This document shows, piece after piece, positions 9,790-37,477 of a DNA stretch of 64,000 nt. The notes below the pieces were generated by a model. The model was not told where the DNA came from, did not search any database, and saw only the letters and a list, made by a program, of their open reading frames with translations. The stretch is from contig JBBTCT010000034.1 in the NCBI GenBank assembly GCA_038060895.1, forward strand, positions 32,001 through 96,000, in the 5' to 3' direction. The stretch comes from Planctomycetota bacterium. GTDB taxonomy: Bacteria > Planctomycetota > MHYJ01 > WSZJ01. The number at the start of each line of letters is the position of its first letter. Within the stretch, counting starts at the first letter, position 1. A program made the position numbers and the translations under genes.

Positions 9790-11046
9790 ATGGGAATCCA
9801 GGCACCGCTAGGGTTCGAAGACCACCTCCCCGACCGCATGCCGGTCTGGCGTCGCATTGAAGAGGCCGCAAAGCGCGTCGCCGAGACGTATGGCTACCGC
9901 GAGATGCGCACTCCCCTTCTCGAATCAACCGAGCTCTTCATCCGCTCCGTCGGCGAGGTCACCGACATCGTCGAGAAGGAGATGTTCACCTTCGATAAAG
10001 GCGAAAAGGACTCGCTCACCCTCCGCCCCGAGCTCACCGCCTCCTTCGTCCGCGCCTGCGTCGAACACGGCCTCTTCAAGAAGAAGGCCTTCCAGAAACT
10101 GTTCTACATCGGCGCCAACTTCCGCAAGGAACGCCCGCAGAAGGGCCGCCTGCGCCAGTTCCACCAGTTCGGCGTCGAGGCCCTCGGCGCGACCGATCCC
10201 CTGCTCGACGCCGAGACCGTCCTCCTCGCGCTCCGCTTCTTCGAGGAGCTCGGCGTCCCCGGCGTGAAGACCAAGGTCAACTCGATCGGCTGCCCCAACT
10301 GCCGCCCGAAATACCGCGACGCCCTCAAGGCGAAGTTCGCCCCCATCATCGGCCAGTTCTGCGAGAACTGCCGGCGGCGCTTCGACCGCAACGTCTTCCG
10401 CATCCTCGACTGCAAGGTCGAGAAGGACGTCGCCCTCACCGCCGACGCCCCGCGCGTCCAGGACTCCCTCTGCGCCGACTGCCTCGCCCACGACAAGGCC
10501 TTCGTCGACGCCCTGTCGCGCGCCGGCGCTCCCTTCGCCCAGGACCCCCGCCTCGTCCGCGGCTTCGACTACTACACCCGCACCGTCTACGAGTTCACCG
10601 CCCCCGGCCTCGGCGCCCAGGACGCCATCGGCGGCGGCGGCCGCTACGACAACCTCATCGAGGAAATGGGCGGCGACAAGGCCGGCGCCGTCGGCTTCGC
10701 CATCGGCCTCGAACGCGTCGTCATCGCCCTCGAAGCCGCCGGCAAGGCCCCCGAGGAGGAATGGTTCTCCACCCGCGTCTTCGTCACCCACATCGGCCCC
10801 GAAACCCGCGTCCCCGCCTTCGACCTCGTCCGCCAGCTCCGCGCCGACGGCATCGCCGCCGACATGGACTACGAGGGAAGGTCGCTCAAGGCCCAGATGC
10901 GAAGCGCGAACCGCGTGAAGGCGCCGTGGGTTGTGATCATCGGCGGGGATGAGCTGGCGAAGGGGGTGGTGAAGTTGAGGGATATGGGGAAGAGTGTGGA
11001 GGTGGAGGTGAAGCCGGGGGAGTTGGGGGAGAGGGTACGGGGCTAA
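9790..11046 (+). CDS. hisS: Histidine--tRNA ligase
   Basis: [63 protein letters not shown]-terminal anticodon-binding domain. Confidence 0.98.
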
Positions 11047-11200
11047 GTCGGCGCCGGGGCCGACTTCGCTGTTCCACTTTTTGGCTGCTCCGCCCCAATT
11101 TCAAGCGCCACTCTGGTTGATCGCTCGGCGCAGCTCGCCTCGAACTGACGTTCACGGCCGGGCACCATTGCCGTCGACGCTCAGAATCTGACAATGCCCC

Positions 11201-11241
11201 TTGCGCAATAGTGTTATCTATGGTAACTTATTTTATAACAC
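11201..11241 (+). promoter_or_regulatory. AT-rich sigma70-like promoter with inverted-repeat operator
   Basis: TTGCGC-17 nt-TAACTT; inverted repeat GTGTTAT (11211-11217) / ATAACAC (11235-11241) straddling the -10. Confidence 0.55.
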
Positions 11242-11262
11242 ATTCTATAAGTGAGAACAGCG

Positions 11263-11823
11263 ATGACGAAGTCGACCGTGATTACAAAGGAGTTCGACGC
11301 AATCAAGACAGCGTTAGAAGTCTTGGAGCCGCTAGACGCCAAGCAGCGCCAGTTTGTCGTGGGAATGATCCTCTCACGGCTCGACATGGCAGCGCCGGTG
11401 GCGAACGAAGTGGCCGGCGAATCGTCCGCGGGGAGCGGCGCTGAGCATGCGGGGGCCGCGTCGACCAAGGCACCCGGTGTGCGCGATTTTCTCAAGAGGA
11501 AGAGTCCGGCCACGGATCTCGAACGATTTGCCTGCCTCGCCTTTTACCTGACGCAGCACATGGGGTCAGCCGCGTTTACTACGCGCGACATCACAAAACT
11601 CAATGGCGAGGCAGGCGGGCAAGACTTCTCAAATCCGGCCGCCACGGCCATGAATGCGACGCGCCAGAGCAAGCTGCTCAGCAAAGCGGGCGGCGGCAAG
11701 AAGCGCATTACCATTCACGGAGAGGATCTCGTCAATGCCTTGCCTGATCGGGTGAAGGTAAAGGAGGTCATGAAGTCCAAGACCGTTCGGAAAAGGACGG
11801 CCCGGAAGCCGTCCAAGAAATAG
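11263..11823 (+). CDS. Hypothetical protein with probable C-terminal winged-helix domain
   Basis: FLKRKSPATDLERFACLAFYL...KKRITIHGEDLV wing-like pattern; first gene of a two-gene unit. Confidence 0.7.
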   Translation: MTKSTVITKEFDAIKTALEVLEPLDAKQRQFVVGMILSRLDMAAPVANEVAGESSAGSGAEHAGAASTKAPGVRDFLKRKSPATDLERFACLAFYLTQHMGSAAFTTRDITKLNGEAGGQDFSNPAATAMNATRQSKLLSKAGGGKKRITIHGEDLVNALPDRVKVKEVMKSKTVRKRTARKPSKK

Positions 11824-11837
11824 GACGAGGCAACGGA

Positions 11838-12611
11838 ATGATCGCGACAATCAGACAAGGTCTCGCGGCCGCTCTAGATAGCAGTCTCGTCGACGAGTTG
11901 CTCGCGGCACACCAGGAGGCGAAGAGAAATTACTACCTCGGCGGCTTGCGGCTAAGCGCAGTAGAGGGCGGCCGCTTCTGTGAGGCGGCGTTTCGACTGC
12001 TCCAACAGCGGACATCGAAAACCTTCGACAGACTTGGTGTCCAACTCGACACAGAGAAGCTCATCAAGCAGCTCGGCAACATCCCTGCCGCTCAGGAGCT
12101 CGACGCTGTGCGGCTTCACATACCACGGGCGCTTCGCGTCGTCTACGACATCAGAAACAAGCGTAACAATGCCCACCTCGCGGACGGGATCGACCCGAAC
12201 TTGCAGGATGCGACGCTGGTCATTGGAGTCATAGATTGGGTTCTCGCTGAATTTGTTCGGCTCTACCACGCTGTTCCGGCCAACGATGCAAGGCAGATGG
12301 TGGAAAACATCGTCACTCGTTCTGCGCCCGCCATTCAGGACTTTGAGGGATTTCAAAAGGTCCTGCGTACCGATCTTAGCGCCAGCAATTTCGTCGTCCT
12401 TCTCCTTTACGCGAAAGGAAGTGCCGGCGCCAGCATCGAGCAGGTCGAGGGGTGGGTTCGTCCAAAGATGAGAGCCAACCTCCTGCGCACCTTGCATCAG
12501 CTGGAGCATGAGAAGGCGTTCATTCACCGGCGAGAAGGGATGCTGTTTATCACCCACTCAGGACAAAAACATGTAGAAGCGAATCGCCTCATGGCTCCGG
12601 AGCCTGCGTGA
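11838..12611 (+). CDS. HEPN-like RNase domain plus C-terminal winged helix (putative Abi/toxin)
   Basis: GRFCEAAFR early Glu helix and RNKRNNAH R-x-H motif; C-terminal LFITHSGQKHVE wing. Confidence 0.65.
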   Translation: MIATIRQGLAAALDSSLVDELLAAHQEAKRNYYLGGLRLSAVEGGRFCEAAFRLLQQRTSKTFDRLGVQLDTEKLIKQLGNIPAAQELDAVRLHIPRALRVVYDIRNKRNNAHLADGIDPNLQDATLVIGVIDWVLAEFVRLYHAVPANDARQMVENIVTRSAPAIQDFEGFQKVLRTDLSASNFVVLLLYAKGSAGASIEQVEGWVRPKMRANLLRTLHQLEHEKAFIHRREGMLFITHSGQKHVEANRLMAPEPA

Positions 12612-12693
12612 CCCGGAGTCTGAACCCCTGATGCGACGCGGGCATCTTGCGCCGGAAACTCGAAGATGCCACCCAGCGGTGACTCTTACCAAC

Positions 12694-15600
12694 CTACTTG
12701 ATCCACCACCCCTTGTTATTCGCGAACTTGAAGCCGAGTTCTTTCAGTCGTGCTGCCACGGGTCCTTCCGTACCAAGGTGGTAGACCCAGAGTGCGCCCA
12801 ACTTTGCGCGGTGATCCGCCGATTTCAAATTCTGTCCTCGGCATAGTTGCTCTACCTCCCGCAGCATCTTGGGATCAAGGTCATCGCTCTCCCGTCTAGA
12901 GAACAGGGTCTGCTGAGCATCTAGCGGCGCGGCCGTCCGCTCAGCGGCGGGGCGATCCGTGGCGGTGACACTTCGGAGAGGAGGGGCCACGAAATCGGCT
13001 CTGGCGCCCTGTGGTCCGACGGGAGGAATCTCGCTCGAAGTCGCGACTGTCGGACACTCTTGGAAAGCGTTGAGGGTGGCACGCTTTTCCATGGATGGCG
13101 AAACCGTCCGCCGTTCGGTGTGAATGCTTCTGCGGGCCCCGGCAGCGCCCACAGGTTCTATTCCGCGCTCCCGCAGACTCTTCTGCAGGTCTTCGATCAC
13201 GTGTCCTCGCCGACGGAGGAAGGCGGACGCAAAACAACGCCAGAATACCCAGCCTGCTCGTTCGAGTACGCGTTGGCGTCGCATGTCACTCGCCCATTGG
13301 TCAGCCCCGTGATACTGATCGCCGTCACACTCGATCGCTAGCCTCTCGTCGTTGCCTCCCTCCACGACCAGGTCGATTCGATACTGGCCGACGCCGACCT
13401 GCGGCGTGACGAGATACCCGCGCGAAATCAGTTCGTCATACATCTCCCTCTCAAAAGGTGACTCGCAGAGTTTGCGCAGATCGGCTGCACGAACCTCGTC
13501 CTGGGCGAAGGGTGAGGAAAAGTGTGCGATCAAACTTCGCCGCAGCTTGTCGGCGTCGCTGAGGTTCTCCGGCCCTACAGAGCGCACCAGGTACATTCGG
13601 TCACGCGCCCGCGACGCCGCCACGTTGAACCTCTGTTCAAAGGTTGCGCGAGTCGGCGGGGCGCCGACATCGTTCGGCGCGGACACCATCGAGAGAAACA
13701 TGATGTCACGTTCTTTTCCCTGGAACGTCCGAGCGTCTCCGCACGCAATCTGGTGACGCCTGATCACGTCGGGACCTACTTCTGCCGTCAACCGCTCCCA
13801 AACCGCGAAGGCCTGTTTGTCAGCCAGGAGCGATACGACTCCGATCGACCGATCCTTCATCCTCGGATCTGCGACGATATGCCTGATTTCATCGACGATG
13901 AAGCGGACCTCCGGCAAGTTCACGTCCTCCGTGCGGAATCCGTTCTCCACGACGACATCAATGAGGGGTGGATCCAATCGCTCCGAGGCCCTGGGAATTC
14001 TCAGGGGACGCAGTTCGTGGTTGTAGAACTCTCGCTTTGAGTACTCGATGATCGACGTCACGCACCGGAAGTGCTCTTTCAGCGTGACCGAGCTGCCAGC
14101 GAACACGACCTTGAAGAGGTCGTACATGGAACGATCAGGCGCCATCTGTGGGCCGAATGTTGGAACCTGGTCCGCGAGGAATCGACCCATCAGGTTCCGG
14201 ACCTTGTCTTCTTCCAAGCCAACTCCTTCGGGCGATACCTGCTTGTCATCTCCGACTACAAGAATCTTCTTTGCTCGAAGCATCGCAGGAAGTGCAGTCA
14301 GGTCTGATTGCGAGGCTTCGTCGATGACAACCAGGTCAAAGCAGCCAATTCGTGGAGGTAGCGATTCCGACACTCGATAGTGCGGCATGATCCAAGCGGG
14401 GACCGCGGGATTGGCCAATTCAGCCGCCTTGCGAGCGTCCTGGCGATAGCGAACGGCACGTTTGCCGGTCCCCTTGCCGATCTTCATGATCGCGTTGAGG
14501 TACCCCTGCAGCGCAGCGCGAACGCTGTGTGACGCGTTTTGAGTGAGATTCAGCCACGTTCGCTTTCCTACGATGTCGCGGTAGGCGCGCGCAAGATCTG
14601 TGGAGAGTTCTTCTCGCTCCCTTGCAAGTTTCTTCAGTGCAAGATGGGCATCGATGGAATCCAGGTGGCTCGCAAGGCGTCTCACTCTCCAGACCGATTT
14701 CAGGTTGTCCGGCAAGAGTGGGTCATGTGCGCCCTGGAGGGGCTGCCTGAGGGACTCCGCGAATTGCGACGCCCCCGAATCCTCGATGAGCGCACATACA
14801 TCTCGCACCGTCGCCAAGGCGGATTTGAGAGCCAGCACTCGTGAGAGCTCGGTCATCAATGCTGACCAGGTAGACTGAAGTGTCGCCTCTGAAACTTGCG
14901 AATTCCCAAGCGTTTCCTTCAAGAACCGACGAAGGTCCTCCACGACGCGACCTTGACGCCCGTCGAGGACCTTTGAAAATCTCCCCATCGTGTTCCAGAC
15001 ATTTGCCAGTCGGTTCTTCGCCAAGTGATGGCGCAACGCTCTCTCAAGATCGTCAAGCTTCTCCGCGTCTTCGGAGACAAGTCGGTGATGCGGCCATCGT
15101 GGAAACACACGCACCGCCTGATCCCGAAGGTCTGACTCCGCCTGCACGATCGCTCTGACCTTGGCGTAAAGTCCGTACAACTCAGCGGCCTTCAGGCCGC
15201 CTTCCGCGGCATCTCCAGGAACTGGCGCAAGTCCGATCGGAGCTGCCAGCTGATTCCAGCGAAGCGCAAGGGCACGCAGCCGCTGCAGGTGATCAAGGAA
15301 TGCCAGAACCTGTCTCCAATCTGCTGCGGACGCGGGAGGATTGCCAAGGATGAGAATTCCCCGCAGCCGTCTCTTCTGTTCGGACTTTCCGAGCAAACCA
15401 GCGATGAGTCCGAATGGGCTTCTTCCTTCGGCCAGGTTCCCGATGGCTGCCCGGACTTCCAGATCCCGCTCGACCTCCCCGGGAGTTTCCACCGGTCGCG
15501 CCAGGAATGATTTCTGAGCCGCGGACTCGGCGTTCAGCTCGGCACCGAGCGCTTCCAGCATCTTGAAAAGTTCGGCCTTTTCTTTTCTTCGCAGGTTTTC

Positions 15601-17679
15601 CCGGGCGTCGTTTGTCCAGGCCTGATTTGCCCTCACCACCTCTTCACGAAGGCCTCTCAGCGTTTCCACGAGAACTGCCAGGTTGGCCGCTCGAGCGAGC
15701 GTGTCCGGACCCGAATCCGCCAGAGTAGGGACCTCGCCCCGTTCGATACCGAGTTTCAGCTTTTCGAGTTCACATAGGTCAACGTGGGCGTCGAGCAGCG
15801 CGCGAGCCTCGGGAAACTCGACTAGTTGCGGAAGAGATGCGTGCAGGTAGTCGATGTCAATACCCAACTCCCGGCGAGCCTCTCGCAACTGAACAATTTC
15901 GGAATCGGAGAAGCGAGGAGCGAATGTCGGAGCAACACCGATCTCGTCCGGAATCAAGCCAAGAAGTGCCTCGTTGCTAACGACCTCGCGCGCAGCGTCT
16001 TGTGGGTCGATCTCCTGGTCATCTAGTCGGATCTTTGCGAGATTTCGTCTGGCCCAATCAGAAATCTTGCGGTCAATTCCTGCCAGGCTGCCGTGCAACG
16101 CTTCGATCCGTTCTTGCAGACGAAGTATCTCTCGTTTCGTGGCGCCTAGGTCGAGCGACTGTACTTCCGATGCGATCTTGTGGATCGCGTGCTCGAACTG
16201 CTTCATGCCACCGTGTTCACTGGCTAGAAGAGCAATCGAGAGCGGTCGGATCTCTTCCGGCAACTGCTCCTGAAGGACCGCGAGCGCCGGATCCTTCATC
16301 GACGTCACAAGGACGCGCTTGCCGTTCGCAAGAAAGTGGCAAATGACATTTGCAATCGTATGCGTCTTGCCTGTCCCAGGAGGTCCCTGTACGACGACGC
16401 CGTTGAAGACCTCTAGCAGCTGGACGATCCGGACCTGTTCGTCGTTGAAGGCCTTTGGAAAGTAAAGGTCTCGCACCTTGGACTTGGGTGACGAGGAGCC
16501 ACTTTCGCCAGCGTAGGCAACAGACAAGCCGCGGAACTCAGGCAAGTCAATTTCGCGGCTGGTGGTTTCCGGATCCGTCACCAGAGCTTTGACGGCGGGG
16601 GGAAGCTCTTCCTTTCCCTCAGACTCCTGAATCGCTTCCTTCAGCTTTTCCAGGTCCTGCAAAAAGACGCCTTGAGTTCTGGGGCGTGCGAAAACTACCC
16701 ACGTATTTGTCACCTTGAGGTGCTCATCGGCGTCAGGAATGCTGCGATCTTCGGAAGGCACCGTTTCGGGCCAGTAGACCCCGTGCGCGTCCAGGGTAGT
16801 TGCCGCCGAGCGGAGTAAGGATTCAAAGGTGCTCTGATCGAATGGAGAGAAAGTGGTCGTGACCGCCGCAAAATGGTCCTTTGCTGTCTTCTCCAGAACG
16901 CTTACTTCGCAATTCTCTACGCCGGAGCACCAGTCGATTTCAAGTCGAGCATCTGCCTGTCTTGGCCTCACCTTCAAGTTCCCGTTTTCGGGGTCGAGTG
17001 CCAGCTCCACAAGGCGAGTGACTAGCGGGTACGCCACGCGCATCCCATCACAATTCCAGACGCAGATGCCTGCGCCCCATACGAGCTCGATTTGTGACTC
17101 GACGATCCCCCCCTCAAGCTGTTGTTTCAGCGTGAAGAGCTTCGAGTAGAGTTGGATCGATCGCCTTCGCGGCTTCTCCCGTTCTGCCCAAGGCCTCCAC
17201 TCTGAGTCGAGGTAGTCGGAAAATTGGGACCTGACGATCGATGCCTTCGCGAAGTCAGCCAAGGAGACGAACGACAACGAATCTCCGACCTTAGCGCCCG
17301 CACTCGATGTGATACCTGCTTTCGAGTTCTGGCCGGTCTCTGGCGCGGCAGTCGTCGCCCCCAGAAACCTAAGATCAATCTGGCCAAGCAATTTGGGAGG
17401 CTCGGTCGGCAGGTCCTGGACTTCAACCCAGGGTCGGAGGATCTCACTTTTGATTCTCGGCGGCGGGTCCGGATGGAGTCGTTCCACCGAGAGCCACACT
17501 TCGTCATCGCCCTCGGCATCGTGAAGATCTAGATGGATCCCTGGCAGACCCTGAATCTCATGCTCGTGCATCGAGAAGAGTCGGTGCTGCGCGACGCTCG
17601 AAACGAACTTGCTCCGCAGGCGCGCAGATTGCTGCGCGAACTCGATCAGTGAGACCAAACGATCATGGGCGGAACTCAC
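12694..17679 (-). CDS. Large UPF1/DNA2-like SF1 helicase with C-terminal Vsr/MTES_1575-like endonuclease (Hhe-like defence candidate)
   Basis: QGPPGTGKT, IDEASQ, VGDDKQ, EHFRC, FQGKERD, FNVAASRAR; ESPFERE...YRIDLVV...IECDGDQYH...RQRVLERAGW; start uncertain (17679 or 17736). Confidence 0.9.
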   Translation of the reverse strand: MSSAHDRLVSLIEFAQQSARLRSKFVSSVAQHRLFSMHEHEIQGLPGIHLDLHDAEGDDEVWLSVERLHPDPPPRIKSEILRPWVEVQDLPTEPPKLLGQIDLRFLGATTAAPETGQNSKAGITSSAGAKVGDSLSFVSLADFAKASIVRSQFSDYLDSEWRPWAEREKPRRRSIQLYSKLFTLKQQLEGGIVESQIELVWGAGICVWNCDGMRVAYPLVTRLVELALDPENGNLKVRPRQADARLEIDWCSGVENCEVSVLEKTAKDHFAAVTTTFSPFDQSTFESLLRSAATTLDAHGVYWPETVPSEDRSIPDADEHLKVTNTWVVFARPRTQGVFLQDLEKLKEAIQESEGKEELPPAVKALVTDPETTSREIDLPEFRGLSVAYAGESGSSSPKSKVRDLYFPKAFNDEQVRIVQLLEVFNGVVVQGPPGTGKTHTIANVICHFLANGKRVLVTSMKDPALAVLQEQLPEEIRPLSIALLASEHGGMKQFEHAIHKIASEVQSLDLGATKREILRLQERIEALHGSLAGIDRKISDWARRNLAKIRLDDQEIDPQDAAREVVSNEALLGLIPDEIGVAPTFAPRFSDSEIVQLREARRELGIDIDYLHASLPQLVEFPEARALLDAHVDLCELEKLKLGIERGEVPTLADSGPDTLARAANLAVLVETLRGLREEVVRANQAWTNDARENLRRKEKAELFKMLEALGAELNAESAAQKSFLARPVETPGEVERDLEVRAAIGNLAEGRSPFGLIAGLLGKSEQKRRLRGILILGNPPASAADWRQVLAFLDHLQRLRALALRWNQLAAPIGLAPVPGDAAEGGLKAAELYGLYAKVRAIVQAESDLRDQAVRVFPRWPHHRLVSEDAEKLDDLERALRHHLAKNRLANVWNTMGRFSKVLDGRQGRVVEDLRRFLKETLGNSQVSEATLQSTWSALMTELSRVLALKSALATVRDVCALIEDSGASQFAESLRQPLQGAHDPLLPDNLKSVWRVRRLASHLDSIDAHLALKKLAREREELSTDLARAYRDIVGKRTWLNLTQNASHSVRAALQGYLNAIMKIGKGTGKRAVRYRQDARKAAELANPAVPAWIMPHYRVSESLPPRIGCFDLVVIDEASQSDLTALPAMLRAKKILVVGDDKQVSPEGVGLEEDKVRNLMGRFLADQVPTFGPQMAPDRSMYDLFKVVFAGSSVTLKEHFRCVTSIIEYSKREFYNHELRPLRIPRASERLDPPLIDVVVENGFRTEDVNLPEVRFIVDEIRHIVADPRMKDRSIGVVSLLADKQAFAVWERLTAEVGPDVIRRHQIACGDARTFQGKERDIMFLSMVSAPNDVGAPPTRATFEQRFNVAASRARDRMYLVRSVGPENLSDADKLRRSLIAHFSSPFAQDEVRAADLRKLCESPFEREMYDELISRGYLVTPQVGVGQYRIDLVVEGGNDERLAIECDGDQYHGADQWASDMRRQRVLERAGWVFWRCFASAFLRRRGHVIEDLQKSLRERGIEPVGAAGARRSIHTERRTVSPSMEKRATLNAFQECPTVATSSEIPPVGPQGARADFVAPPLRSVTATDRPAAERTAAPLDAQQTLFSRRESDDLDPKMLREVEQLCRGQNLKSADHRAKLGALWVYHLGTEGPVAARLKELGFKFANNKGWWIK

Positions 17680-17825
17680 GCCCAGCCATGCAACATCGCT
17701 GACATCATGTCGGTCAAGGGTACTGTAGACTTCCACCGCGGAGTGACGACTCGCCCCGTTGCCGGTCTGCGACGCCTAGCAGTATTCCGGCCTCCGATCG
17801 AAGTGTTGCCGCCTCCAAGGACACG

Positions 17826-18428
17826 ATGGACAACCCAGCTCCCACACACGCGCAGGCGATTCGAAAACCGGCGACCATCGATCAGGCTTTCGTCCGTGAA
17901 GTCGTCGGCGAGTTTCCGCATGGAAGCTGGAAATCCCTGCGAGGTTCAAACCTCAGCTCGTCGACCGAAGCCAACTCAAAAGCACGATCTTGGAAGTGCG
18001 TGCGATGCCTCCATAAAGTCGGAGGCGTCTACGCATTCTTGTTTCCGGAGAGCCACTTTCTCGAAGAGCGCGAAATCTCACTCGACGGACCGCTGAAGCG
18101 AAGCATCCCATTCAGATTTAGTCACAAGACTCACCCTGCACACGAGGGGTACGTCGTGGCCTACGTCGGAAAAGCCACGAACCTGAGTCAGCGATTCAAG
18201 TTGCACTTCAGCAGGACCGAAAGGAGCACCGTCGTGCAGGTCAGAGCCGGTCTCGTCAAGTCGGGTTTCTGCGTGGATCGCCACCTTGCGCTGGATTTCA
18301 TGCTCCAGCACGCGGTGATCAGGTATCGAGAACTGACAGGAGATGAGCACGCCGCCAACCGCGACCTCCTGGAGTTGTCGCTGTGCGCGCGCTTCGCGCC
18401 ACCGTTCAACATCAAATCTGAACGGTGA
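17826..18428 (+). CDS. GIY-YIG family nuclease
   Basis: GGVYAF...AYVGKATNLSQRFKLH...LLE...PPFN. Confidence 0.75.
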   Translation: MDNPAPTHAQAIRKPATIDQAFVREVVGEFPHGSWKSLRGSNLSSSTEANSKARSWKCVRCLHKVGGVYAFLFPESHFLEEREISLDGPLKRSIPFRFSHKTHPAHEGYVVAYVGKATNLSQRFKLHFSRTERSTVVQVRAGLVKSGFCVDRHLALDFMLQHAVIRYRELTGDEHAANRDLLELSLCARFAPPFNIKSER

Positions 18429-18576
18429 GCTCTCGTCGAACTTGCAGAGCACGAGACTTGAGTGGCGCGGTGTCTCGGTGGGCTTGCTTTCACCACACCG
18501 GAGGCTACGATTCCAGTTTGATGCAGTTCACGGCCCGCGAGCCGCACTAATCCGCAGGCTCTCCGGAGAGTGAAAG

Positions 18577-19587
18577 TTGAGCGAACGTCATCGCCTGCTC
18601 GAATCGATCGCGAAGATAACGTCGGACTACCGCACCGGCGAAGTCGCAGCTCCTTCTCCGGAGCACGTCGAGAGGTGGGTCGCTCAGTTCGATCCAAAGG
18701 TTCGCGATCCGCTCCTCGCCGAGATGGAGCACGTCCTGCGGCGCAGTTACCTGAGTCGCAAGACCGTCACGACCTTCCTGGGGAAGCAGGTGATGAACAA
18801 CAAGCTCGCAGGCGCTTCACCCTGCGCCTTCTGGAAAGCCGCGCACTTCCTCAGGATCCAGAAGAACGGTCACAGCCAGGAGGAGATGCTCGACCTGTTC
18901 GCCGACTGCCTGAAGTCTCAGTGCAGCATCGACCTGGCTGACTGCGGCAGCGCGGAAGGAGCCTACATCTACCTCGATGACGCGTCGTTCAGCGGCAGCA
19001 GGATGGGCAGCGACCTCGAAGAGTGGATCCTCACGAAGGCTCCCAAGAAGGCAACCGTCCACGTTCTCGTCATCGCGGTCCACGCCCTCGGCGAGTTTCT
19101 GGCAACCAACCGCCTGGACAAGGCCGCGGATCGAGCCGGGAAGAAGATCGACTTCCACATCTGGCGGGCGATCACGATCGAGAATCGCAAAGCGTACCGC
19201 CACTCGTCCGAGGTTCTGTGGCCGGTCAGTCTGCCGAGGAACAAGGACGTGCAGGCCTACGCCGACGAGGAGGACCGGTATCCGTTCGAACCAAGGACTG
19301 CCATTCCCACGAGCACGCAGACCTTCTTCACGTCCGAAGCTGGACGCCAACTCCTCGAGCGAGAAATGCTCCTGGCAGGTGTACGAATCCGCTCGATGAG
19401 CGCGAACCCAAAGAAGATCATGAGGCCGTTGGGCTTCAGTGCCTTCGGGTTGGGCTTTGGGTCGATGATCGTGACGTTCCGAAACTGTCCGAACAACTGT
19501 CCGCTCGCCTTGTGGTGGGGTGACCCGGACTCGACTTCGGAAGGACCGCTGAACTGGTATCCGTTGTTTCCCCGCAAAACCTACTAG
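18577..19587 (+). CDS. Phosphoribosyltransferase-fold conflict protein (PRTase-CE/ShosT-like)
   Basis: PRPP-loop-like YIYLDDASFSGS; C-terminal FRNCPNNCPLALWW...WYPLFPR; TTG start after GGAGAG. Confidence 0.75.
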   Translation: MSERHRLLESIAKITSDYRTGEVAAPSPEHVERWVAQFDPKVRDPLLAEMEHVLRRSYLSRKTVTTFLGKQVMNNKLAGASPCAFWKAAHFLRIQKNGHSQEEMLDLFADCLKSQCSIDLADCGSAEGAYIYLDDASFSGSRMGSDLEEWILTKAPKKATVHVLVIAVHALGEFLATNRLDKAADRAGKKIDFHIWRAITIENRKAYRHSSEVLWPVSLPRNKDVQAYADEEDRYPFEPRTAIPTSTQTFFTSEAGRQLLEREMLLAGVRIRSMSANPKKIMRPLGFSAFGLGFGSMIVTFRNCPNNCPLALWWGDPDSTSEGPLNWYPLFPRKTY

Positions 19588-19602
19588 AGTACGGTGGTGG
19601 TC

Positions 19603-20241
19603 ATGAATCCATCGGGCGCAAAGCGACGTTCGGAGACACGCACCTACCGGCGTTCCGCTTGCGTCGTTTTCTGCAAGACGGCTGAGGAATTCGGTGGTCT
19701 GTCGAACATGGCGGGAGGCTTCCCGCTGGAGATAAACGGGATTCCGATCCTCACTGCAGAGGCCCTGTACCAGGCCTGCAGATTTCCGCACCGTCCCGAG
19801 ATTCAGCGCCTGATCATCGATCAAAAGAGTCCCATGACGGCGAAGATGAAAAGCAAGCCACATCGCGCGGACTCAAGAAGTGACTGGGACGCTGCGCGAG
19901 TCACGATCATGAGGTGGTGCGTGAGGGCGAAGCTCGTGCAAAACCGGTCGAAGTTCGGACCGCTTTTACTATCGACGCTGGATCGCCCCATCGTTGAGGA
20001 ATCGCGGAGAGATGACTTCTGGGGCGCGCAACCCGTCGATGCGGAGGTTCTGGTCGGATCCAATCTCCTTGGCAGGCTGCTGATGGAACTTCGGCAGCAG
20101 TTCCGCGAGACGAATGGGGATGGTTTCAAGCACCTCGACCCTCCCAGAATCCCGAACTTTCAGATTTACGGTGAGCCCATCCGAGTCGTCACGCCACCTT
20201 CGCCGAAGCGGCGGCGCGGTGGAGACTTGTTCGGGAGTTAA
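19603..20241 (+). CDS. NADAR family N-glycosidase (YbiA/DUF1768-like)
   Basis: LSNM...TAEALYQACRF...DWDAARVTIMRWCVRAK...LLST...IVEESRRDDFWG...GSNLLGRLLMELR. Confidence 0.85.
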   Translation: MNPSGAKRRSETRTYRRSACVVFCKTAEEFGGLSNMAGGFPLEINGIPILTAEALYQACRFPHRPEIQRLIIDQKSPMTAKMKSKPHRADSRSDWDAARVTIMRWCVRAKLVQNRSKFGPLLLSTLDRPIVEESRRDDFWGAQPVDAEVLVGSNLLGRLLMELRQQFRETNGDGFKHLDPPRIPNFQIYGEPIRVVTPPSPKRRRGGDLFGS

Positions 20242-27486: not shown

Positions 27487-27638
27487 GGCTTCACCGCCGA
27501 CATGGACTACGAGGGCCGGTCGCTCAAGGCCCAGATGCGAAGCGCCAACCGCGTGAAAGCGCCGTGGGTCGTGATCATCGGCGGGGATGAGCCGTTCGAC
27601 TCGCTTCGCTCGCTCACTGTGGACTGGCGAAGGGGGTG
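27487..27638 (+). repeat. Degenerate hisS 3' fragment, copy 1, with 32-bp REP-like insert
   Basis: Aligns to hisS 10849-10968 plus insert 27592-27623. Confidence 0.95.
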
Positions 27639-27713
27639 CTGATGTTGGGCCGGTGTCGGATACAGTAGTCAGCGACTGGCCGTTCCCCTTCTACACGGTT
27701 CTACGCACACACC

Positions 27714-29009: not shown

Positions 29010-29088
29010 ACAGCGACGTACAAGAAGCCCCTGTCGAGCACGAAACCATCCTCTTCCGCATCGTCTACTACGCGTCCTGCGCTTCCTG

Positions 29089-29447
29089 CTCGTGAAACAC
29101 CCCGCACCATCCGCTTCCCGCCGCGATACCATTCGCAACGCGTTCGATCCGGCGTCACAGGGAGGCGGCATGCTCCGGAAGACATGGCTGGCACTTCTCC
29201 TCTGCGCGGCCCCGCTCGCGGCCGAGGAGGGCTACGACGCGGGCGACAGCTGCCCCGACTTTGAGCTCTTCAACACGGACGGCCGCGCCGTCCGGCTCTC
29301 CGAATTCCGCGGGCGCGTCGTGGTGCTTCACCTGTTCGCCACGTGGTGAGGCGGCTGCCAGGCGGGCGGGGCGCCGATCGCGCAGTTCGCGCGGGAGGTG
29401 AAGGACGACGGGCGGGTGGCGTTCGTCGAGATCGCGGGCGGGGAGAC
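29089..29447 (+). repeat. 359-bp direct repeat, copy 2
   Basis: Near-identical to 21215-21573. Confidence 0.95.
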
Positions 29448-29450
29448 CCC
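29170..29450 (+). pseudogene. Truncated TlpA/redoxin putative selenoprotein, copy 2
   Basis: Same sequence with TGA at 29347-29349 in W-U-G-G-C. Confidence 0.75.
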
Positions 29451-30434: not shown

Positions 30435-30461
30435 ACGCCCGTTCGCGCTTAACTTGAGCGC

Positions 30462-31112
30462 ATGCCTAAACTCGTGGTCCGCAGTTTCGCCATCTCCCTG
30501 GACGGCTTCAGCGCCGCTCCCGGGCAGAGCCAGAAGGAGCCCTTCGGGAAGAACGGCCTGAGGCTCATGGGGTGGGCCTTCGCCACCAAACACATGACCA
30601 CCCTGTTCGGCGGCACGGGCGGCGCCGAGGGCATGGACAACGACTTCCTGGCCCGATCGGACGAGAACATCGGCGCCAGCATCATGGGCCGCCACATGTT
30701 CGGCCCGCCCCCCGACGCCAAGGACAAGGAGTCCTGGAAGGGCTGGTGGGGCGAAAACCCTCCCTACCACCACCCCGTCTTCGTGCTGACCCACGAAAAG
30801 AAAGCCCCCCTCCCGATGGAAGGCGGCACTCGCTTCACCTTCGTGAACGACGGCATCGAATCCGCCCTGAAACAGGCCCTCGCCGCCGCCCAAGGCAAAG
30901 ACGTCCGCCTGGCCGGCGGCGCGGCCACCGTCCGCCAATACCTGAAAGCCGGCCTCATCGACGAGCTCCACCTGGTGCAGGTGCCCCTCCTGTTCGGCCA
31001 GGGGGAACGCATCTTTGAAGACCTGGGGGGCGTGGAGAGCCTGTACGAGTGCGTGGAGTTCACGCCTTCCAGGGCGGTGTCGCACTTGCGGATCGTCAGG
31101 AAGGCCAGGTAG
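30462..31112 (+). CDS. Dihydrofolate reductase/RibD C-terminal family protein
   Basis: ISLDGF, GASIMGRHMF, WGENPPYHHPVFVLTH, GGAATVRQYLKAGLIDELHL. Confidence 0.9.
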   Translation: MPKLVVRSFAISLDGFSAAPGQSQKEPFGKNGLRLMGWAFATKHMTTLFGGTGGAEGMDNDFLARSDENIGASIMGRHMFGPPPDAKDKESWKGWWGENPPYHHPVFVLTHEKKAPLPMEGGTRFTFVNDGIESALKQALAAAQGKDVRLAGGAATVRQYLKAGLIDELHLVQVPLLFGQGERIFEDLGGVESLYECVEFTPSRAVSHLRIVRKAR

Positions 31113-31199
31113 GGAATCACCGCCGACATGGATTACGAGGGAAGATCGCTCACGGCCCGGATGCGAAACGCCAACCGCGTGAAGGCGCCGTGGGTCGTG
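31113..31199 (+). repeat. Degenerate hisS 3' fragment, copy 2
   Basis: Aligns ungapped to hisS 10849-10935; starts immediately after the upstream stop codon. Confidence 0.95.
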
Positions 31200-31231
31200 G
31201 AGCCGCGCCGGCGCGGGACATCACGGGCCGC

Positions 31232-31260
31232 TTGACTTCACAAAGCCACACAACTATGAT
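31232..31260 (+). promoter_or_regulatory. sigma70 promoter of the TA operon
   Basis: TTGACT-17 nt-TATGAT; GGAGG RBS follows. Confidence 0.75.
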
Positions 31261-31285
31261 ATTTGCACTACTTGGAGGACTTCCC

Positions 31286-31558
31286 ATGATCCAGCATGTC
31301 TCCCCGCTGCACCTCCGCCAGAAGCTCGGCGACGTCCTGAACCGCGTCGCGCTTCGGCAGGACGAGTACGTCATCGAGCGCAAGGGGCATCCGCTCGCAG
31401 CGCTGGTGTCAGTCGAGAAGATGCGATCCCTCGTGGAGGCGGCGCGGCTGCACCTGCTGGCGGCGCTTCCGGCGCGCCGCACGAAACTCCCGCAGGCCGC
31501 GGCGGACGCGCTTGCGGACGAGGCCAAGCACCGGTCGCGTCCGAGGCGGAGGAAGTAG
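31286..31558 (+). CDS. Phd/YefM family antitoxin
   Basis: LRQKLGDVLNRV...YVIERKGHPLAALVS. Confidence 0.85.
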   Translation: MIQHVSPLHLRQKLGDVLNRVALRQDEYVIERKGHPLAALVSVEKMRSLVEAARLHLLAALPARRTKLPQAAADALADEAKHRSRPRRRK

Positions 31559-31561
31559 CCC

Positions 31562-31999
31562 GTGATTCGGGCCGTGCTGGACGCCAACGTCCTGGCGAGC
31601 GCGTTCATCCGCCCTCAAGGACATTCCGGGCAGATCCTGCGCCGGTTTCTCGAGCGGGGTGAATTCGACCTCGTGCTCTCGCGGCCGATCCTGGATGAGC
31701 TGGAACGGGTGCTCTTCTACCCGCGCCTTCGCAAGGAGTTGGCCGTGACGGACGACGAAATCCGGGCGCGCGTCGCCCACCTCGGGGTGCTGGCCGTGCT
31801 CGCGGAAGGCGAGGCGGGCGAGAGGATCGTCGAGGCGGATCCCGACGACGACAAGTACGTCGCGGCTGCGCTTCATGGGCAGGCGTCCTTCCTCGTCAGC
31901 GGCGACCGCCACCTGCTGGACCTCAAGGATTCCCGCGGGGTGCGGATCGTCAAGCCGAGGGAGTTTCTGGACGTCCTCTCTTCGACGCGCCCGGCCTGA
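31562..31999 (+). CDS. PIN domain toxin (COG1569-like)
   Basis: AVLDANVLASA, ILDELERVL, DPDDDKYV, LVSGDRHLL. Confidence 0.9.
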   Translation: MIRAVLDANVLASAFIRPQGHSGQILRRFLERGEFDLVLSRPILDELERVLFYPRLRKELAVTDDEIRARVAHLGVLAVLAEGEAGERIVEADPDDDKYVAAALHGQASFLVSGDRHLLDLKDSRGVRIVKPREFLDVLSSTRPA

Positions 32000-33893: not shown

Positions 33894-34061
33894 CCGCGTG
33901 AAGGCGCCGTGGGTCGTGATCACCGGCGGGGATGAGCCGTTCGACTCGCTACGCTCGCTCACGGTGGACTGGCGGAGGGGGTGGTGCAGCTGAGGGATAT
34001 GGGGAAGAGTGAAGAGGTGGAGGTGAAGCCGGGGGAGTTGGCGGTGAGGGTAAGGTGCTGA
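33894..34061 (+). repeat. Degenerate hisS 3' fragment, copy 3, running to the stop codon, with the same 32-bp insert
   Basis: Aligns to hisS 10911-11046 plus insert 33937-33968. Confidence 0.95.
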
Positions 34062-34323
34062 TTCCTCGATCGAGAAGTCATCCAGCACGCCAGGCGCCGT
34101 CCCGCGCTCCGTCTCAGGCGCTCGATCGGGCTTGTTTCGAGCCCGTCCGGGGTCTAGATTGGCCGTTCCGTATGCGCCCCCTACCGGCGAGCCTTGTCAT
34201 CCTCCCCGGATTGCCCTCTCGAAGGGTGACCCACGGCGGTCCAACGCGAACACCGCGTGGTAGAGGGCCCGGCAAGCGGACTCAAAGTTCACACGCGCTA
34301 TTCTCAACCGAGCGATAAGCCCT

Positions 34324-35088
34324 GTGAGCGCCTTGATCATCCCTTGCTTCATCCGGACCCAATGGGATCTCGATTGCCTTAACCGCTTGCTCGACAGCGT
34401 CCAGGCGCAGTCCAAGCCGTTCGACAAGGTCTATCTGGTCGACGATGCCAGTCCGCTGAAGTACGAGCTCGGGCACGGCTTCGCGGAACTTGTCATCCTC
34501 GATAAGAACGGCGGTCCGGCCCGCGCTCGCAACATAGCCATAAACAAGGCCTTGCAGGTCGGCATCGAAGACCTCTTGTTTGCAGATCATGACTGCATCC
34601 TCGACAACGACTGGAATCAGGAAATGACCGCGTTCCTCTCTGGAACCGAGTTCGCTGCCGTAGGTGGAATGACCTACTCGTGGGGCAAGACCTTGCTGGA
34701 TTACTACCACGACATCAATGGCACACTGGCGGGCAAGTGGCTCCTGCCCGACCGGAAGGAACTCTGGTACATGCCGTCTTTGAACTTCGGGATGAAGGCC
34801 TTCGCGGCAGAGCAATTTCCATTCGACGAAAGGTTCCCTAACGCCGCCGGCGAAGACGTCGACCTATGCCTGCGATTGCGGAGTAAATACCGCATAGGCT
34901 TCTGTCCGGCAGCGAAACTCTGGCACGACTATGGGTACAAGAGCTCAATTACCGGTTTCATTCGCTTCTTGAAGCTGTTCAAGAAGTACAAAAGCTCCAG
35001 TGCCACGCTCTACGAAGGTCACACCGTGTTGATGTGGGATTCCTCCGAGTCGATCTACCAAGGGAACATGCATGAGCCTCATCTATAG
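34324..35088 (+). CDS. Glycosyltransferase family 2
   Basis: ALIIPCF, LVDDAS, NGGPARARN, FADHDC, FDERF...GEDVDLCLR. Confidence 0.9.
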   Translation: MSALIIPCFIRTQWDLDCLNRLLDSVQAQSKPFDKVYLVDDASPLKYELGHGFAELVILDKNGGPARARNIAINKALQVGIEDLLFADHDCILDNDWNQEMTAFLSGTEFAAVGGMTYSWGKTLLDYYHDINGTLAGKWLLPDRKELWYMPSLNFGMKAFAAEQFPFDERFPNAAGEDVDLCLRLRSKYRIGFCPAAKLWHDYGYKSSITGFIRFLKLFKKYKSSSATLYEGHTVLMWDSSESIYQGNMHEPHL

Positions 35089-36094
35089 ACTAAGGCCGAC
35101 CCAATCTAACTTCACCCACGGCATCCAGGACTACCTGGGGGAGATAGTGCCATTCGCCCGTCGCGTGAAGAACCCCTTCTTGAAAATCCCCCTGGTCGCG
35201 CTCAAGTCTATCGAGTGGGGCATCTATCGCTGGCACAAGACGTCGATCCGCCGGTTTTATGGGATCAAAAGCAACGAGTTGATCTACATGATCACCAACG
35301 CCTGCAACGATCGTTGTCCAAAGTGCGGAATCTGGGAAAGGCCTGAGCCGAAACGCCAGCATCTGATGATTCAGCACTTCATCACTTGCCTCAAACGACT
35401 CCACCAGAATCTGTTCCAGGTCACCTTGACCGGCGGAGAACCGCTCCTGTTCAAGCGGGACGTCATGCTGATCGCCGAGGAGGCCAGGAAGCTGGGGGTG
35501 CCGATGGTTATCGTGACCAACGCGCGGCTCGTCGACGAGGCATTCCTCACGAGGTATAAGGAATTGGGCCACGTCTTGGTGATCTCTATCGACTCGGTGC
35601 AGCGTGAAAAGTGGAACGAGTTCCGAGGTACCAAGAGCTTCGATATCGTTATGCCCAGAATCCTGCTCGCAAAGCAGATTCTGGGAGACCAATTGCGCGT
35701 CCAGTCCGTGCTTTCCAGGGAGTCGGCCGAAGAAATCCCCAAGGTCATCGCGTGGTGCAAGCAGCTCGGCATCCAGCACAGCGTTCAACTCTACCAGGAT
35801 TTCGGGGCGTACAACTGGACCGCCGCCGCCTCTTCTCAGGCGATGATCGATGACGGCACCCCTTGCGCTGCCCGAAAGAACATCTGCATTTATCCCAATG
35901 GCGACGTGGTGAAGTGTTTCGACCATCGCCGGATTCCTCTGGCAAAGGAACCGCTAGGTAACATCGCCCGTCAGGACATCATCGAGATTCTTTGCACCAA
36001 ACGGTCAACGGAAGTATCCAAGATCATGAAGACGTGCAATTTCCCGTGCAAGAACATGTCCTGCAACAAGCCGCGGGAACTCTTGTTCAAATGA
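35072..36094 (+). CDS. Radical SAM protein with SPASM/twitch domain
   Basis: CNDRCPKC, LTGGEPLL, IVTNA, ISIDS; CAARKNICIYPNGDVVKC and C-terminal Cys cluster. Confidence 0.9.
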   Translation: MSLIYRLRPTQSNFTHGIQDYLGEIVPFARRVKNPFLKIPLVALKSIEWGIYRWHKTSIRRFYGIKSNELIYMITNACNDRCPKCGIWERPEPKRQHLMIQHFITCLKRLHQNLFQVTLTGGEPLLFKRDVMLIAEEARKLGVPMVIVTNARLVDEAFLTRYKELGHVLVISIDSVQREKWNEFRGTKSFDIVMPRILLAKQILGDQLRVQSVLSRESAEEIPKVIAWCKQLGIQHSVQLYQDFGAYNWTAAASSQAMIDDGTPCAARKNICIYPNGDVVKCFDHRRIPLAKEPLGNIARQDIIEILCTKRSTEVSKIMKTCNFPCKNMSCNKPRELLFK

Positions 36095-36693
36095 AATCGA
36101 ACCCGTTAGACGTGATTATCATCGCGGGGGCACCCGGGACGGGCAAGTCCCAGGCGGCCAGGTGCCTAACTTCCTATTTTCGCGACGGAGTAAAGGTCGA
36201 GGTGGACGTCCTGCGCAGCATGGTGATTTCCGTCGACTGGAAAAACCAGCGGGAACATGTAGACCTCTTGCAAGTGGCGGCACGATTGACGCATGAATTC
36301 CATGTCTTCGGATTCAGGCCTGTGATCGTCGTCGATACTTTCAGCGGGGACAAGATACATGGATTCCTGGAAACCCTTCGACGGCTGAACGAAGCGCTCA
36401 TCATCAGAATCTTCGGACTCCATGTTTCAGACGAGGCCTTGCTGAAGCGCTTGAAGGAACGGCCAGCTGACGAATTCAAGGACTTCGGCATCAGCAAGAA
36501 GCTGAATGCCGACGTCTTGAGGCATGGCCATCGGGGCGGGCAATTGGTCGACACCTCCGAACTCACTCCGGAGGAGACGGCCGGCGAGATCTACAAAAGG
36601 CTCATTCTGACAGGTTCCGCGTGGCCCCCTACGGGTCCGGGTAGCATGATTGACACGGCACTACGATGCCGTATGCACAAGAGCCCCCGATGA
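36091..36693 (+). CDS. P-loop nucleotide-kinase-like protein (AAA_33-like)
   Basis: IIIAGAPGTGKS, IVVDT, LLKRLKER lid, VDTSELTPEE; ATGA-coupled to the radical SAM gene. Confidence 0.8.
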   Translation: MKSNPLDVIIIAGAPGTGKSQAARCLTSYFRDGVKVEVDVLRSMVISVDWKNQREHVDLLQVAARLTHEFHVFGFRPVIVVDTFSGDKIHGFLETLRRLNEALIIRIFGLHVSDEALLKRLKERPADEFKDFGISKKLNADVLRHGHRGGQLVDTSELTPEETAGEIYKRLILTGSAWPPTGPGSMIDTALRCRMHKSPR

Positions 36694-37355
36694 AACGACT
36701 CGCCCTGCTCGTCCTGCTGTTCCCGCTGGGCTGCGGCCCTTCCGCCCCTCCGCCGCCGTACGTCCGCCCGAGCGACCGCCCGCTGGTGCGCCCGGATGCT
36801 CCCGAGATGAAGACCCAGGCGCCCGAGCGCTTCAAGGCCCGCTTCACCACGTCCCAGGGCGACTTCACGATCACGGTGGTGCGCGCCTGGGCTCCGCTGG
36901 GCGCGGACCGCTTCTACAACCTGGTCCGCGGCCGCTTTTTCGAAGAGGCGCGCTTCTTCCGGGTCATGAAGGGCTTCATGTGCCAGTTCGGAATCGCCGC
37001 CGACCCCGCCGAGTCGGCTCTGTGGAAGGACGCGACGATCGCGGACGATCCGGTCAGGGAGAGAAACACGCGCGGAAGGGTCACGTACGCAACGTCCGGC
37101 AAGGGAACCCGGACGACCCAGATGTTTATCAATTACAGCAACGGCAACAAGCGCCTGGACAATAAGGGATTCGCTCCGTTCGGCGAGGTCACCGAGGGGA
37201 TGGACGTCGTGGACAAGCTCTACTCGGGATACGGCGAGGGCGCCCCGAGCGGCAGCGGTCCCAACCAGGAGCGGTTGGAGGCCCAGGGAAATCCCTACCT
37301 GGAGGCCGACTTCCCGAAGCTCGACTACATCAAGAAGGCCGAGATCGTGGAGTGA
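36690..37355 (+). CDS. Cyclophilin-type peptidyl-prolyl isomerase, lipoprotein
   Basis: LGC lipobox; WAPLGADRFYNLV, FFRVMKGFMCQFG, RTTQMFIN, FAPFGEVTEGMDVVD. Confidence 0.92.
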   Translation: MKRLALLVLLFPLGCGPSAPPPPYVRPSDRPLVRPDAPEMKTQAPERFKARFTTSQGDFTITVVRAWAPLGADRFYNLVRGRFFEEARFFRVMKGFMCQFGIAADPAESALWKDATIADDPVRERNTRGRVTYATSGKGTRTTQMFINYSNGNKRLDNKGFAPFGEVTEGMDVVDKLYSGYGEGAPSGSGPNQERLEAQGNPYLEADFPKLDYIKKAEIVE

Positions 37356-37436
37356 CCGTTCCCGCCGCCGCACGGTCCCCAGACTCGATCCGGCCCGAAG
37401 TTCACTCTACGTCTTCCCGTCCTTCGCCACATTCTC

Positions 37437-37477
37437 CTCCATCGGCTGTCCCAACTGCCGCCCGAAATACCGCGACG
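37437..37477 (+). repeat. Internal hisS fragment
   Basis: 39/41 identical to hisS 10281-10321 ([13 protein letters not shown]). Confidence 0.9.

Follow-up and report, generated by a model that had tools for sequence, protein, structure and literature searches.

The window analysed here, a stretch of 64,000 nucleotides (nt) corresponding to positions 32001–96000 of contig C34 of the Planctomycetota assembly G000, carries an intact histidyl-tRNA synthetase gene (hisS) and, downstream of it, four displaced pieces of the same gene. hisS was found to be the border of a genuine hypervariable hotspot at which genes are accreted and turned over; the hotspot and the recurring gene-end pieces are a property of the genus and not of one assembly, since hisS pieces were found in five of seven congeners with differing cargo. 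At about even odds (probability roughly 0.5), the region from hisS to about 39.3 kb is read as a recombinase-free turnover hotspot, fed by homologous imports that are anchored in hisS and closed at their distal end by an illegitimate join.

Pieces of hisS in the window

Four pieces, A to D (Table 1), were obtained when hisS was used as BLASTN query against the window and the whole 5.4-Mb assembly (a draft genome of 47 contigs, 86.5% complete); all lie on the plus strand, in the orientation of hisS, and on this contig only. An earlier, sequence-only reading of the window had noticed the recurrence of the hisS 3' region in the same orientation together with an internal piece, and had suggested self-BLASTN of window and genome with hisS as a check; the four pieces confirm what it saw. 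Piece A is made up of a first part (27487–27592, hisS nt 1060–1165; 93.4%, E 5e-41) and, past a 32-nt insert, of a continuation at 27624–27647 (hisS nt 1165–1188). Piece C was aligned by BLASTN at 33894–34059/34064 with hisS nt 1122–1255 onward and holds the same 32-nt insert at 33938–33969 (±1). The direct repeats that arise from the pieces measure 90–200 nt at 90–96% identity; the same hisS repeat families were recovered by a repeat search of the window, independently of BLASTN.

BLASTN of the whole assembly gave no further convincing hisS piece elsewhere in G000. Weak hisS matches of 35 and 75 nt on C31 and C12, and hisS-like stretches of 31 nt at 8024–8054 and of 27 nt at 37169–37195, were taken as chance. 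No other housekeeping gene with a comparable local array was detected by genome-wide self-megablast of G000.

Two details of the piece ends were revised. Pieces A and B had been described as starting at the same hisS base; this holds only approximately, the common start being a limit of BLAST extension, and a near-coincidence of the two starts stays. Weak similarity of A to hisS extends about 15 nt further left than the BLAST start. One copy had been described as ending exactly at the stop codon; piece C runs to about 3 nt past the stop, and such an end was to be expected anyway and is uninformative, since immediately beyond the stop codon no similarity is left among the hisS alleles of the genus.

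The pieces are real and not an assembly quirk. Contigs assembled from sequencing runs were compared with the window, the best-matching runs being groundwater and aquifer metagenomes; such contigs drop rare forms. An assembly artefact, in which strain variants of the metagenome were collapsed or chimerically joined at hisS-like words, would find some room in the facts that all genomes are metagenome-assembled genomes (MAGs), that a contig break falls within hisS or close to it in G001 and G005, and that the source-run Logan contigs break inside B. It is nevertheless scarcely credible. Unique sequence flanks each piece on both sides, which a chimeric switch cannot give; the Logan contigs of the probable source run, made by a second assembler, span A, C and D; contig X7 of an independent study spans B (30982–31337, 0 differences), and contig X3 of a third study crosses the left junction of A (27055–27561). 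Pieces or junctions are thus reproduced by another assembler and in two other studies, and the same kind of structure recurs in several independent MAGs.

Several joints in the same contigs were considered as signs of excision and rejected: joints 27591>33969 and 37477>27487 come from the true hisS contig, which maps onto A, C and D; a loose contig end at 34059 equals the downstream flank of hisS; joint 27615>40102 has only 20 nt on one side, within a dispersed repeat. No circular junction between pieces was seen in the assembled contigs, in which rare forms are dropped. Separately, in runs X3 and X4 of another study (depth about 8), contigs link position 27434 to position 39011 through 38 other letters; this joint might represent a strain without the whole A–D stretch or might be spurious, the lengths of its two sides not being given.

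The region downstream of hisS in related genomes

The hisS-bearing contigs of seven genomes of the same genus (G001–G007) were compared with the window. The hisS protein is 95–97% identical to those of G002–G005 (80–97% across all seven), and the gene content downstream of it is almost wholly different in each of the seven. A fixed gene order, which had been considered as an alternative to a hotspot, was accordingly not found; the accretion hotspot anchored on hisS, as the sequence-only reading had proposed it, stands on cargo that differs in all seven congeners and on hisS pieces in five of them. Only a thin backbone recurs in the same order: the small gene of which the window keeps a remnant (retained downstream of hisS in G001, G003 and G004), the Phd-PIN pair (G001), the cyclophilin-type PPIase (G001, G003 and G004) and an 804-amino-acid (aa) open reading frame (ORF; G002). 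Few downstream ORFs of G002–G007 have a homologue in the window: the PPIase, the 804-aa ORF, a 1140-aa ORF and three further genes in G004 and, in G003, a 69-aa ORF. A metagenome scan with a 20-nt word from the shared hisS core returned 12 loci; these have only 20–28 nt in common with hisS and were rejected as chance matches in GC-rich DNA, and no further relatives were gained.

The five congeners carry their hisS pieces downstream of hisS or in collinear context, always in the orientation of hisS where this could be judged. G003 has three pieces within 4 kb of hisS (nt 993–1261, 1172–1240 and 1069–1226) and possibly a fourth, about 30 nt long; the pieces are separated by one or two unrelated genes (unknowns, DUF4240, DUF3027-like, Sel1), the cassettes being single genes of 0.7–1.4 kb in one orientation. 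G002 has one degenerate piece; G006 a composite one, in which hisS nt 614–671 are fused to nt 1047–1137; G004 has nt 629–708 just past the PPIase, a place equivalent to that of piece D in the window; G001 has nt 1147–1254 on a contig whose next genes are collinear with the window. No piece was found in the downstream sequence of G005 (4 kb) and G007 (17 kb). On hisS contigs about nine pieces, not all of them independent, fall in nt 993–1257, three are internal and none lies in nt 1–490; the 3' stretch rich in pieces is only 21% of hisS. Piece D is probably an eroded relic of an older and longer displaced hisS copy, and the internal pieces in general (D and those of G004 and G006) would fit eroded remains of longer displaced ends.

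Further hisS pieces were noted on other contigs: a 248-nt internal piece at G004:C191 10047–10293 (nt 360–607, about 92% identical), which adjoins a DDE_Tnp_1_4 transposase gene at 10395–11816, and pieces at G003:C49 (nt 613–761), G005:C108 (nt 7–192) and G005:C375 (nt 997–1083).

Between species, hisS identity per 100-nt segment varies from 78 to 100%, and which species is nearest depends on the part of the gene considered. The standard deviation of this identity is 4.5–7.0 (binomial expectation 2.5–3.1); for the gene of the 804-aa ORF, taken as control, it is 2.7 (expected 2.4). On these figures of segment identity and standard deviation, hisS appears to be a mosaic between species with raised homologous recombination.

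Switches of allele were found within the working gene of two congeners. In G003, working hisS differs from that of G000 at 1 of 81 positions in nt 880–960; in nt 1000–1060 it matches G005 at 57 of 61 positions and G000 at 45 of 61. The displaced piece f1 of G003, which starts at about nt 993, matches G000 at 55 of 61 positions and its own gene at 47 of 61. The switch of allele lies at or before nt 972, upstream of the left end of the fragment. In G006, working hisS is G000-like to nt 1121 and then divergent and AT-richer, with the stop codon lost, the resulting ORF having 693 aa (positions about 6211–8292 of its locus, G006:C155); its displaced piece matches the G000 and G002 alleles at 74–75 of 91 positions and its own gene at 56 of 91. 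In G003 and G006, then, the working gene has changed allele and the earlier allele persists in the fragment: foreign sequence has replaced the live 3' end of hisS, and the former end now lies downstream, beyond new genes. The 3' end of the target gene is thus restored: hisS is intact in G000, and in G003 and G006 its 3' allele differs from that of the scar, a feature common to integrase and recombinase-free models. In G006 the last approximately 40 codons of hisS are replaced, and a 276-aa tail without recognised similarity follows.

In the window, piece A matches the G002 allele at 99 of 102 positions (96 of 102 for resident hisS), and the right part of C is 94% identical to G003 and G001 sequences (90% to resident hisS). 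Both pieces would thereby have the look expected of displaced former ends, nearer to alleles of other species than to the resident gene. The same comparison tells against a simple decay, by which copies of the hisS region, duplicated for instance by unequal crossing-over between paralogues of the tetratricopeptide repeat (TPR) protein gene, were eroded to random relics. Decay would account for the internal pieces (D, nt 629–708 in G004 and the fusion of nt 614–671 to nt 1047–1137 in G006) and would agree with a duplicated 379-nt thioredoxin-like fragment and with the TPR paralogues that flank the region in the same orientation. It is nonetheless considered improbable: the pieces are strongly biased to the 3' end, with none in nt 1–490 on hisS contigs; the intervals between them share only the 379 nt; and the TPR gene beside C is about 70–75% identical to its paralogues, whereas C is about 90–95% identical to hisS.

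Piece boundaries, recombinases and mechanism

The left ends of the pieces across the genus fall at hisS nt 993, 1047, 1060, 1069, 1077, 1122, 1147 and 1172, a spread of about 180 nt; with ends so scattered, the hisS pieces appear to have no fixed att-like boundary. The left edge of B coincides with a 10-mer (9 of 10 letters) common to hisS and to the region upstream of a 316-aa ORF. G002 has the left flank of B up to and including this 10-mer, followed by different sequence, and in G002 the 804-aa ORF sits about 70 nt from that flank. Both parents, the G002 flank and hisS, being visible and overlapping in the 10-mer, the left edge of B is read as a microhomology join between a G002-type flank and hisS.

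Pieces A and C have the 32-nt insertion at the same hisS position. It is a member of a family of dispersed repeats, each about 35 nt long, of which G000 has at least 35 copies, and the inserts of A and C share variants that are absent from most other copies. Through this shared derived insertion, A and C are seen to descend from one older, already dead fragment; the three 3' pieces therefore cannot be counted as independent footprints of insertion.

Other members of the repeat family lie at 21171–21203 and about 6149 in the window and at C22:195517, C10:80830, C15:128263 and C16:88184–88290. The repeat is sometimes tandem (24-nt units on C16), sometimes contains a hairpin, and often has runs of a 12-nt unit after it; in addition to the copies inside A and C, one stands at a block junction and one beside a predicted selenocysteine tRNA (tRNA-SeC) gene on C4. 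A Y1 transposase of RAYT type (PF01797) had no match in G000. The 11-mer at the start of the 32-nt insert was considered as a mark of cassette junctions and rejected, not being enriched in the window: with at most 1 mismatch, 7 matches were counted (3.9 expected), and 15 of 100 shuffles reach 7.

No recombinase or transposase was found by Pfam among 30 ORFs of the window (nearly all sizeable genes between 11.2 and 41.7 kb and one upstream), in agreement with the sequence-only reading, which had none in view and had proposed a genome search for integrases. That search gave seven matches to tyrosine recombinase PF00589 in G000, none of them on C34, and no serine recombinase (PF00239) in this 86.5% complete assembly. 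No tRNA gene was found in the window. Scans of ten unknown ORFs each gave nothing in PHROGs, a PIN toxin only in NCBIfam, and defence-like helicase matches only, with no recombinase, in PADLOC. In five congeners 25 matches to PF00589 were obtained, none on a hisS contig; in 31 related genomes, among the 150 matches listed of 203, only G021 has PF00589 on the hisS contig, 82 kb away. A hisS-like attP was not found elsewhere in G000 by BLASTN.

According to the preferred reading, DNA of related lineages would enter the cell with the 3' part of hisS and the genes downstream of it, and would pair with resident hisS by RecA-type homologous recombination. The far end would be closed by an illegitimate join guided by microhomology, i.e., by homology-facilitated illegitimate recombination (HFIR). 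With the far join placed inside the 3' region of resident hisS, a working hybrid hisS would be kept, and the old end would survive, no longer functional, on the far side of the new cargo. With each later import older fragments would be moved outward, and further joins, insertions and deletions would truncate, split or copy them; the dead fragment of A and C may have been duplicated via a donor that already carried it. The scheme supposes a route of DNA entry, an order of events in the window, and an origin of A, B and C by the process that is visible in G003 and G006. The combination characteristic of HFIR, an anchor plus a microhomology join, was found at one junction of the window (B) and in one event of G003. 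Of the two mechanisms put forward in the sequence-only reading, homologous recombination with hisS ends as anchors is the better fit; as to the other, neither a trans-acting recombinase adding cassettes nor a hisS-like attP was found in G000.

A cycle of Campbell type, in which a circle is released by homologous recombination of hisS with a fragment and, after transfer, is inserted again by single crossover, would multiply fragments with their boundaries kept and would explain the shared insert of A and C and the nearly equal starts of A and B; direct repeats of the length and identity found here are adequate substrates for it. The cycle predicts the same left flank for the pieces, but the left flanks of A, B and C are unrelated. 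A single crossover within the repeat, moreover, cannot put the G003 switch upstream of the start of the fragment, a position that argues for a linear import with a one-sided homologous anchor and not for a single-crossover circle. A back-joint between pieces was not seen in the contigs, which is a weak point, since contigs drop rare forms. On the whole, such cycling does not seem likely.

Several points weigh against the preferred reading. All genomes compared are draft MAGs. No donor was identified for any event in the window. At least one event copied a dead fragment and not the live gene end, so that a further step has to be added to the model. The regularity of the G003 array, in which almost all single-gene cassettes are followed by a hisS piece, is striking, and the stray pieces on other contigs are not accounted for. 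Some ends coincide: nt 1121|1122 is both the left end of C and the allele switch of G006, and nt 1146|1147 is both the right end of B and the left end of the G001 piece. A rough estimate puts the number of exact coincidences due to chance at about 0.6 for some 18 ends; the coincident ends hint at a site preference, and at nothing firmer. ComEC is present in G000 and does not discriminate for competence, being found also in 10 of 14 control genomes; Ku was not found, and neither Ku nor ComEC separates the models.

The coincident ends, together with an identical overlap of B and C (25 nt, nt 1122–1146) such as attL and attR would give, speak for site-specific accretion, in which integrase-borne islands target an attB in the 3' end of hisS and bring a replacement end, their integrases having been lost or acting in trans. 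Displaced 3' ends in direct orientation at island borders are its textbook footprint, serial integration that leaves partial tRNA genes is known for tycheposons (10.1101/2020.12.28.424599), and the regular G003 array would suit it. It is judged unlikely all the same: the hisS contigs of G000 and of five congeners are free of tyrosine recombinases, and the G021 match, the only one on a hisS contig among the 150 listed of 203 in the 31 genomes, is 82 kb off; G000 has no serine recombinase and no hisS-like attP elsewhere in the genome; the fragment boundaries are scattered over about 180 nt; the G003 cassettes are single genes of 0.7–1.4 kb; and the G003 allele switch lies upstream of the fragment start.

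From the same identical overlap, and from the breakpoints that recur in G006 and G001, a further reading was drawn, by which the approximately 25 nt in question (nt 1122–1146) are a true recombination site in hisS, at which an unrecognised enzyme encoded elsewhere shuffles single-gene cassettes. This is regarded as very doubtful; if it were true, the hisS site would amount to integron-like gene capture on an essential aminoacyl-tRNA synthetase gene, most clearly visible in the G003 array.

Known systems, cargo and side features

No report of integration at hisS was found in the openly searchable papers, subscription journals not being covered. Integrons are arrays of cassettes with structured attC sites, and CALINs are attC clusters that lack an integrase. 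The G003 array is like them in that each of its single genes, all in one orientation, has a repeated element after it and no recombinase stands beside the array; it is unlike them in that the repeat is a piece of a housekeeping gene, variable in length, and not a structured attC, and no IntI-type gene is on the contig. In orphan rhs/cdiA tip arrays, incoming DNA replaces the 3' end of a gene, and former ends accumulate downstream, dead, together with their cargo. A replaced 3' end and former ends kept as dead fragments with adjacent cargo are found at hisS as well; in the rhs/cdiA arrays, however, the variable tip is the selected payload, whereas at hisS unrelated DNA that follows a conserved, essential gene end makes up the payload.

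In many hotspots of horizontal gene transfer without mobile genetic elements (MGEs), the core genes at the borders recombine homologously at a raised level (Oliveira et al. 2017, PMC5635113), and core defence hotspots have been described in Pseudomonas aeruginosa (PMC10250203). With the MGE-free hotspots as described in PMC5635113 the hisS region has in common a border formed by a core gene, content that varies from relative to relative, the lack of an integrase or transposase, a mosaic flank and cargo that is partly defence-like; content was found variable, no integrase, transposase or prophage genes were found, and the flanking core gene is mosaic. In the account given there, MGE-free hotspots use double homologous crossovers that leave no scars; here the distal join is often illegitimate and inside the anchor gene, a trail of displaced ends is left, and only the left anchor (hisS) is clearly defined.

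HFIR with joins of 3–10 bp is documented in three transformable species (PMC6382021, on de Vries & Wackernagel 2002; Prudhomme et al. 2002; Meier & Wackernagel 2003). One homologous anchor, a join of short microhomology and foreign DNA beside the anchor are common to HFIR and the hisS region (the 10-nt join of B; the G003 switch upstream of the fragment). As presented in that source, HFIR is a laboratory phenomenon of naturally transformable species, whereas here it would be read from genome scars in an uncultured lineage; repeated one-gene events that leave partial duplications are not mentioned in the passage on HFIR in PMC6382021. Tycheposons, for which tandem accretion of integrase-borne islands at tRNA genes or gene 3' ends is described (10.1101/2020.12.28.424599), are similar in that newer arrivals push older ones outward and partial copies of the target are scattered in direct orientation. 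According to the same description they have tyrosine recombinases and a fixed att, unlike the present region, in which the search for a recombinase was negative, the boundaries differ from piece to piece and an aminoacyl-tRNA synthetase gene is the target.

MGE-free hotspots, one-sided illegitimate recombination and target fragments left by serial insertion are each already known separately. New is that displaced ends of an essential gene, that of an aminoacyl-tRNA synthetase, form a trail which recurs across a genus without an integrase, with alleles of gene and scar that differ in two genomes. The evidence points to ordinary recombination rather than to a new cassette-collecting machine. Turnover of MGE-free hotspots by recombination in the flanks is normally traceless, so that events can be neither counted nor ordered; the scars described here would be a readable record of one-sided homologous and illegitimate recombination in nature, in an uncultured groundwater lineage, by imports that deliver defence-like and other cargo. 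If this is general, partial ends of core genes could be used as markers by which recombinase-free imports are found and dated in other genomes; a hidden site-specific system, should one be responsible instead, would be a new kind of gene-capture platform.

Table 1. hisS, its displaced pieces and other features of the window (positions in the window; hisS nt, numbering within the gene; percentages for pieces, identity to hisS).
Feature	Position	Strand	Remarks
hisS, intact histidyl-tRNA synthetase gene	9790–11046	+	ORF of 418 aa; conserved left anchor of the hotspot
hisS piece A	27487–27647	+	hisS nt ~1060–1188; 32-nt dispersed-repeat insert at 27593–27624 (±1)
hisS piece B	31113–31199	+	BLASTN span hisS nt 1060–1146, ~1064–1146 allowing for the left join; 89.7%, E 6e-28
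hisS piece C	33894–34064	+	hisS nt 1122 to ~3 nt past the stop; E 3e-32
hisS piece D	37437–37477	+	internal, hisS nt 492–532; 95.1%, E 9e-13
Cargo block 1, low-GC defence-like island	11047–21004		directly 3' of hisS; GC 0.56–0.61 (0.65–0.69 in hisS)
Small backbone gene remnant, 3' part	21005–21182	-	80–85% nt identity to G003, G004 and G001, collinear
Thioredoxin-like 5' fragment, copy 1	21198–21576	+	379 nt, in-frame TGA; dispersed repeat copy just before, 21171–21203
Thioredoxin-like 5' fragment, copy 2	29072–29450	+	96.3% identical to copy 1, cut at the same point
Phd antitoxin and PIN toxin pair	31249–31999	+	Pfam PhdYeFM, TIGR00305 PIN; backbone module common with G001
TPR protein, 572 aa	32162–33880	-	Pfam; start codon 13 nt from piece C
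Low-GC cargo: GT2 glycosyltransferase, radical-SAM/SPASM, P-loop kinase	34324–36693	+	Pfam; GC 0.55–0.58
Cyclophilin-type PPIase	36666–37355	+	Pfam; backbone, 85–91% nt identity to G001, G003 and G004
804-aa ORF	39288–41702	-	conserved right-hand neighbour; 93.8% nt identity to G002, even divergence

Cargo block 1 comprises by Pfam two unknown ORFs, a 1680-aa helicase-nuclease, GIY-YIG, PRTase-CE and NADAR, the genes of the defence-like island spanning 11251–20988. The 1680-aa helicase has an MTES_1575/DUF559 nuclease domain and was matched by the PDC-S37, Hhe and Mokosh-like models of PADLOC. There is no hisS piece at the far end of this block, and no homologues of the block were found in the hisS loci of the relatives; the same negative result was obtained in these loci for the low-GC cargo at 34324–36693. 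Two unknown ORFs, of 382 and 257 aa, gave helical-repeat neighbours or unnamed families in Atlas (leads only) and no recombinase; the 257-aa ORF, which belongs to the island, falls in an unnamed family seen in several phyla (likewise a lead only). Other cargo of the window, by Pfam, includes DUF3160 and CAP-domain proteins. No Rfam match to an RNA family was obtained in the window.

The Phd-PIN pair is 85.9% identical (nt) to G001:C229, with which it is collinear. The TPR family is large, with dozens of paralogues across G000. Paralogous two-gene blocks, about 70–75% identical (nt), lie at 4708–8919 and 52260–56662; each consists of a TPR protein gene (minus strand) followed by a gene for a TPR-DUF1570 protein of about 890 aa (plus strand). 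An ORF with a C39 peptidase domain lies past the PPIase, within 34324–38163; the GT2, radical-SAM and kinase trio together with this ORF could be the remains of a peptide-modification cluster.

The thioredoxin-like duplicates, one in the interval from hisS to A and one in the interval from A to B, are all that the intervals between hisS pieces have in common; no full-length copy of the gene was found by BLASTN in G000. The fragments (21296–21655 and 29170–29450) are of a secreted type with the active site W-TGA-G-G-C, possibly a selenocysteine (UxxC) redox motif. Two tRNA-SeC genes were predicted in the genome by ARAGORN, at C1:472898 and C4:13533.

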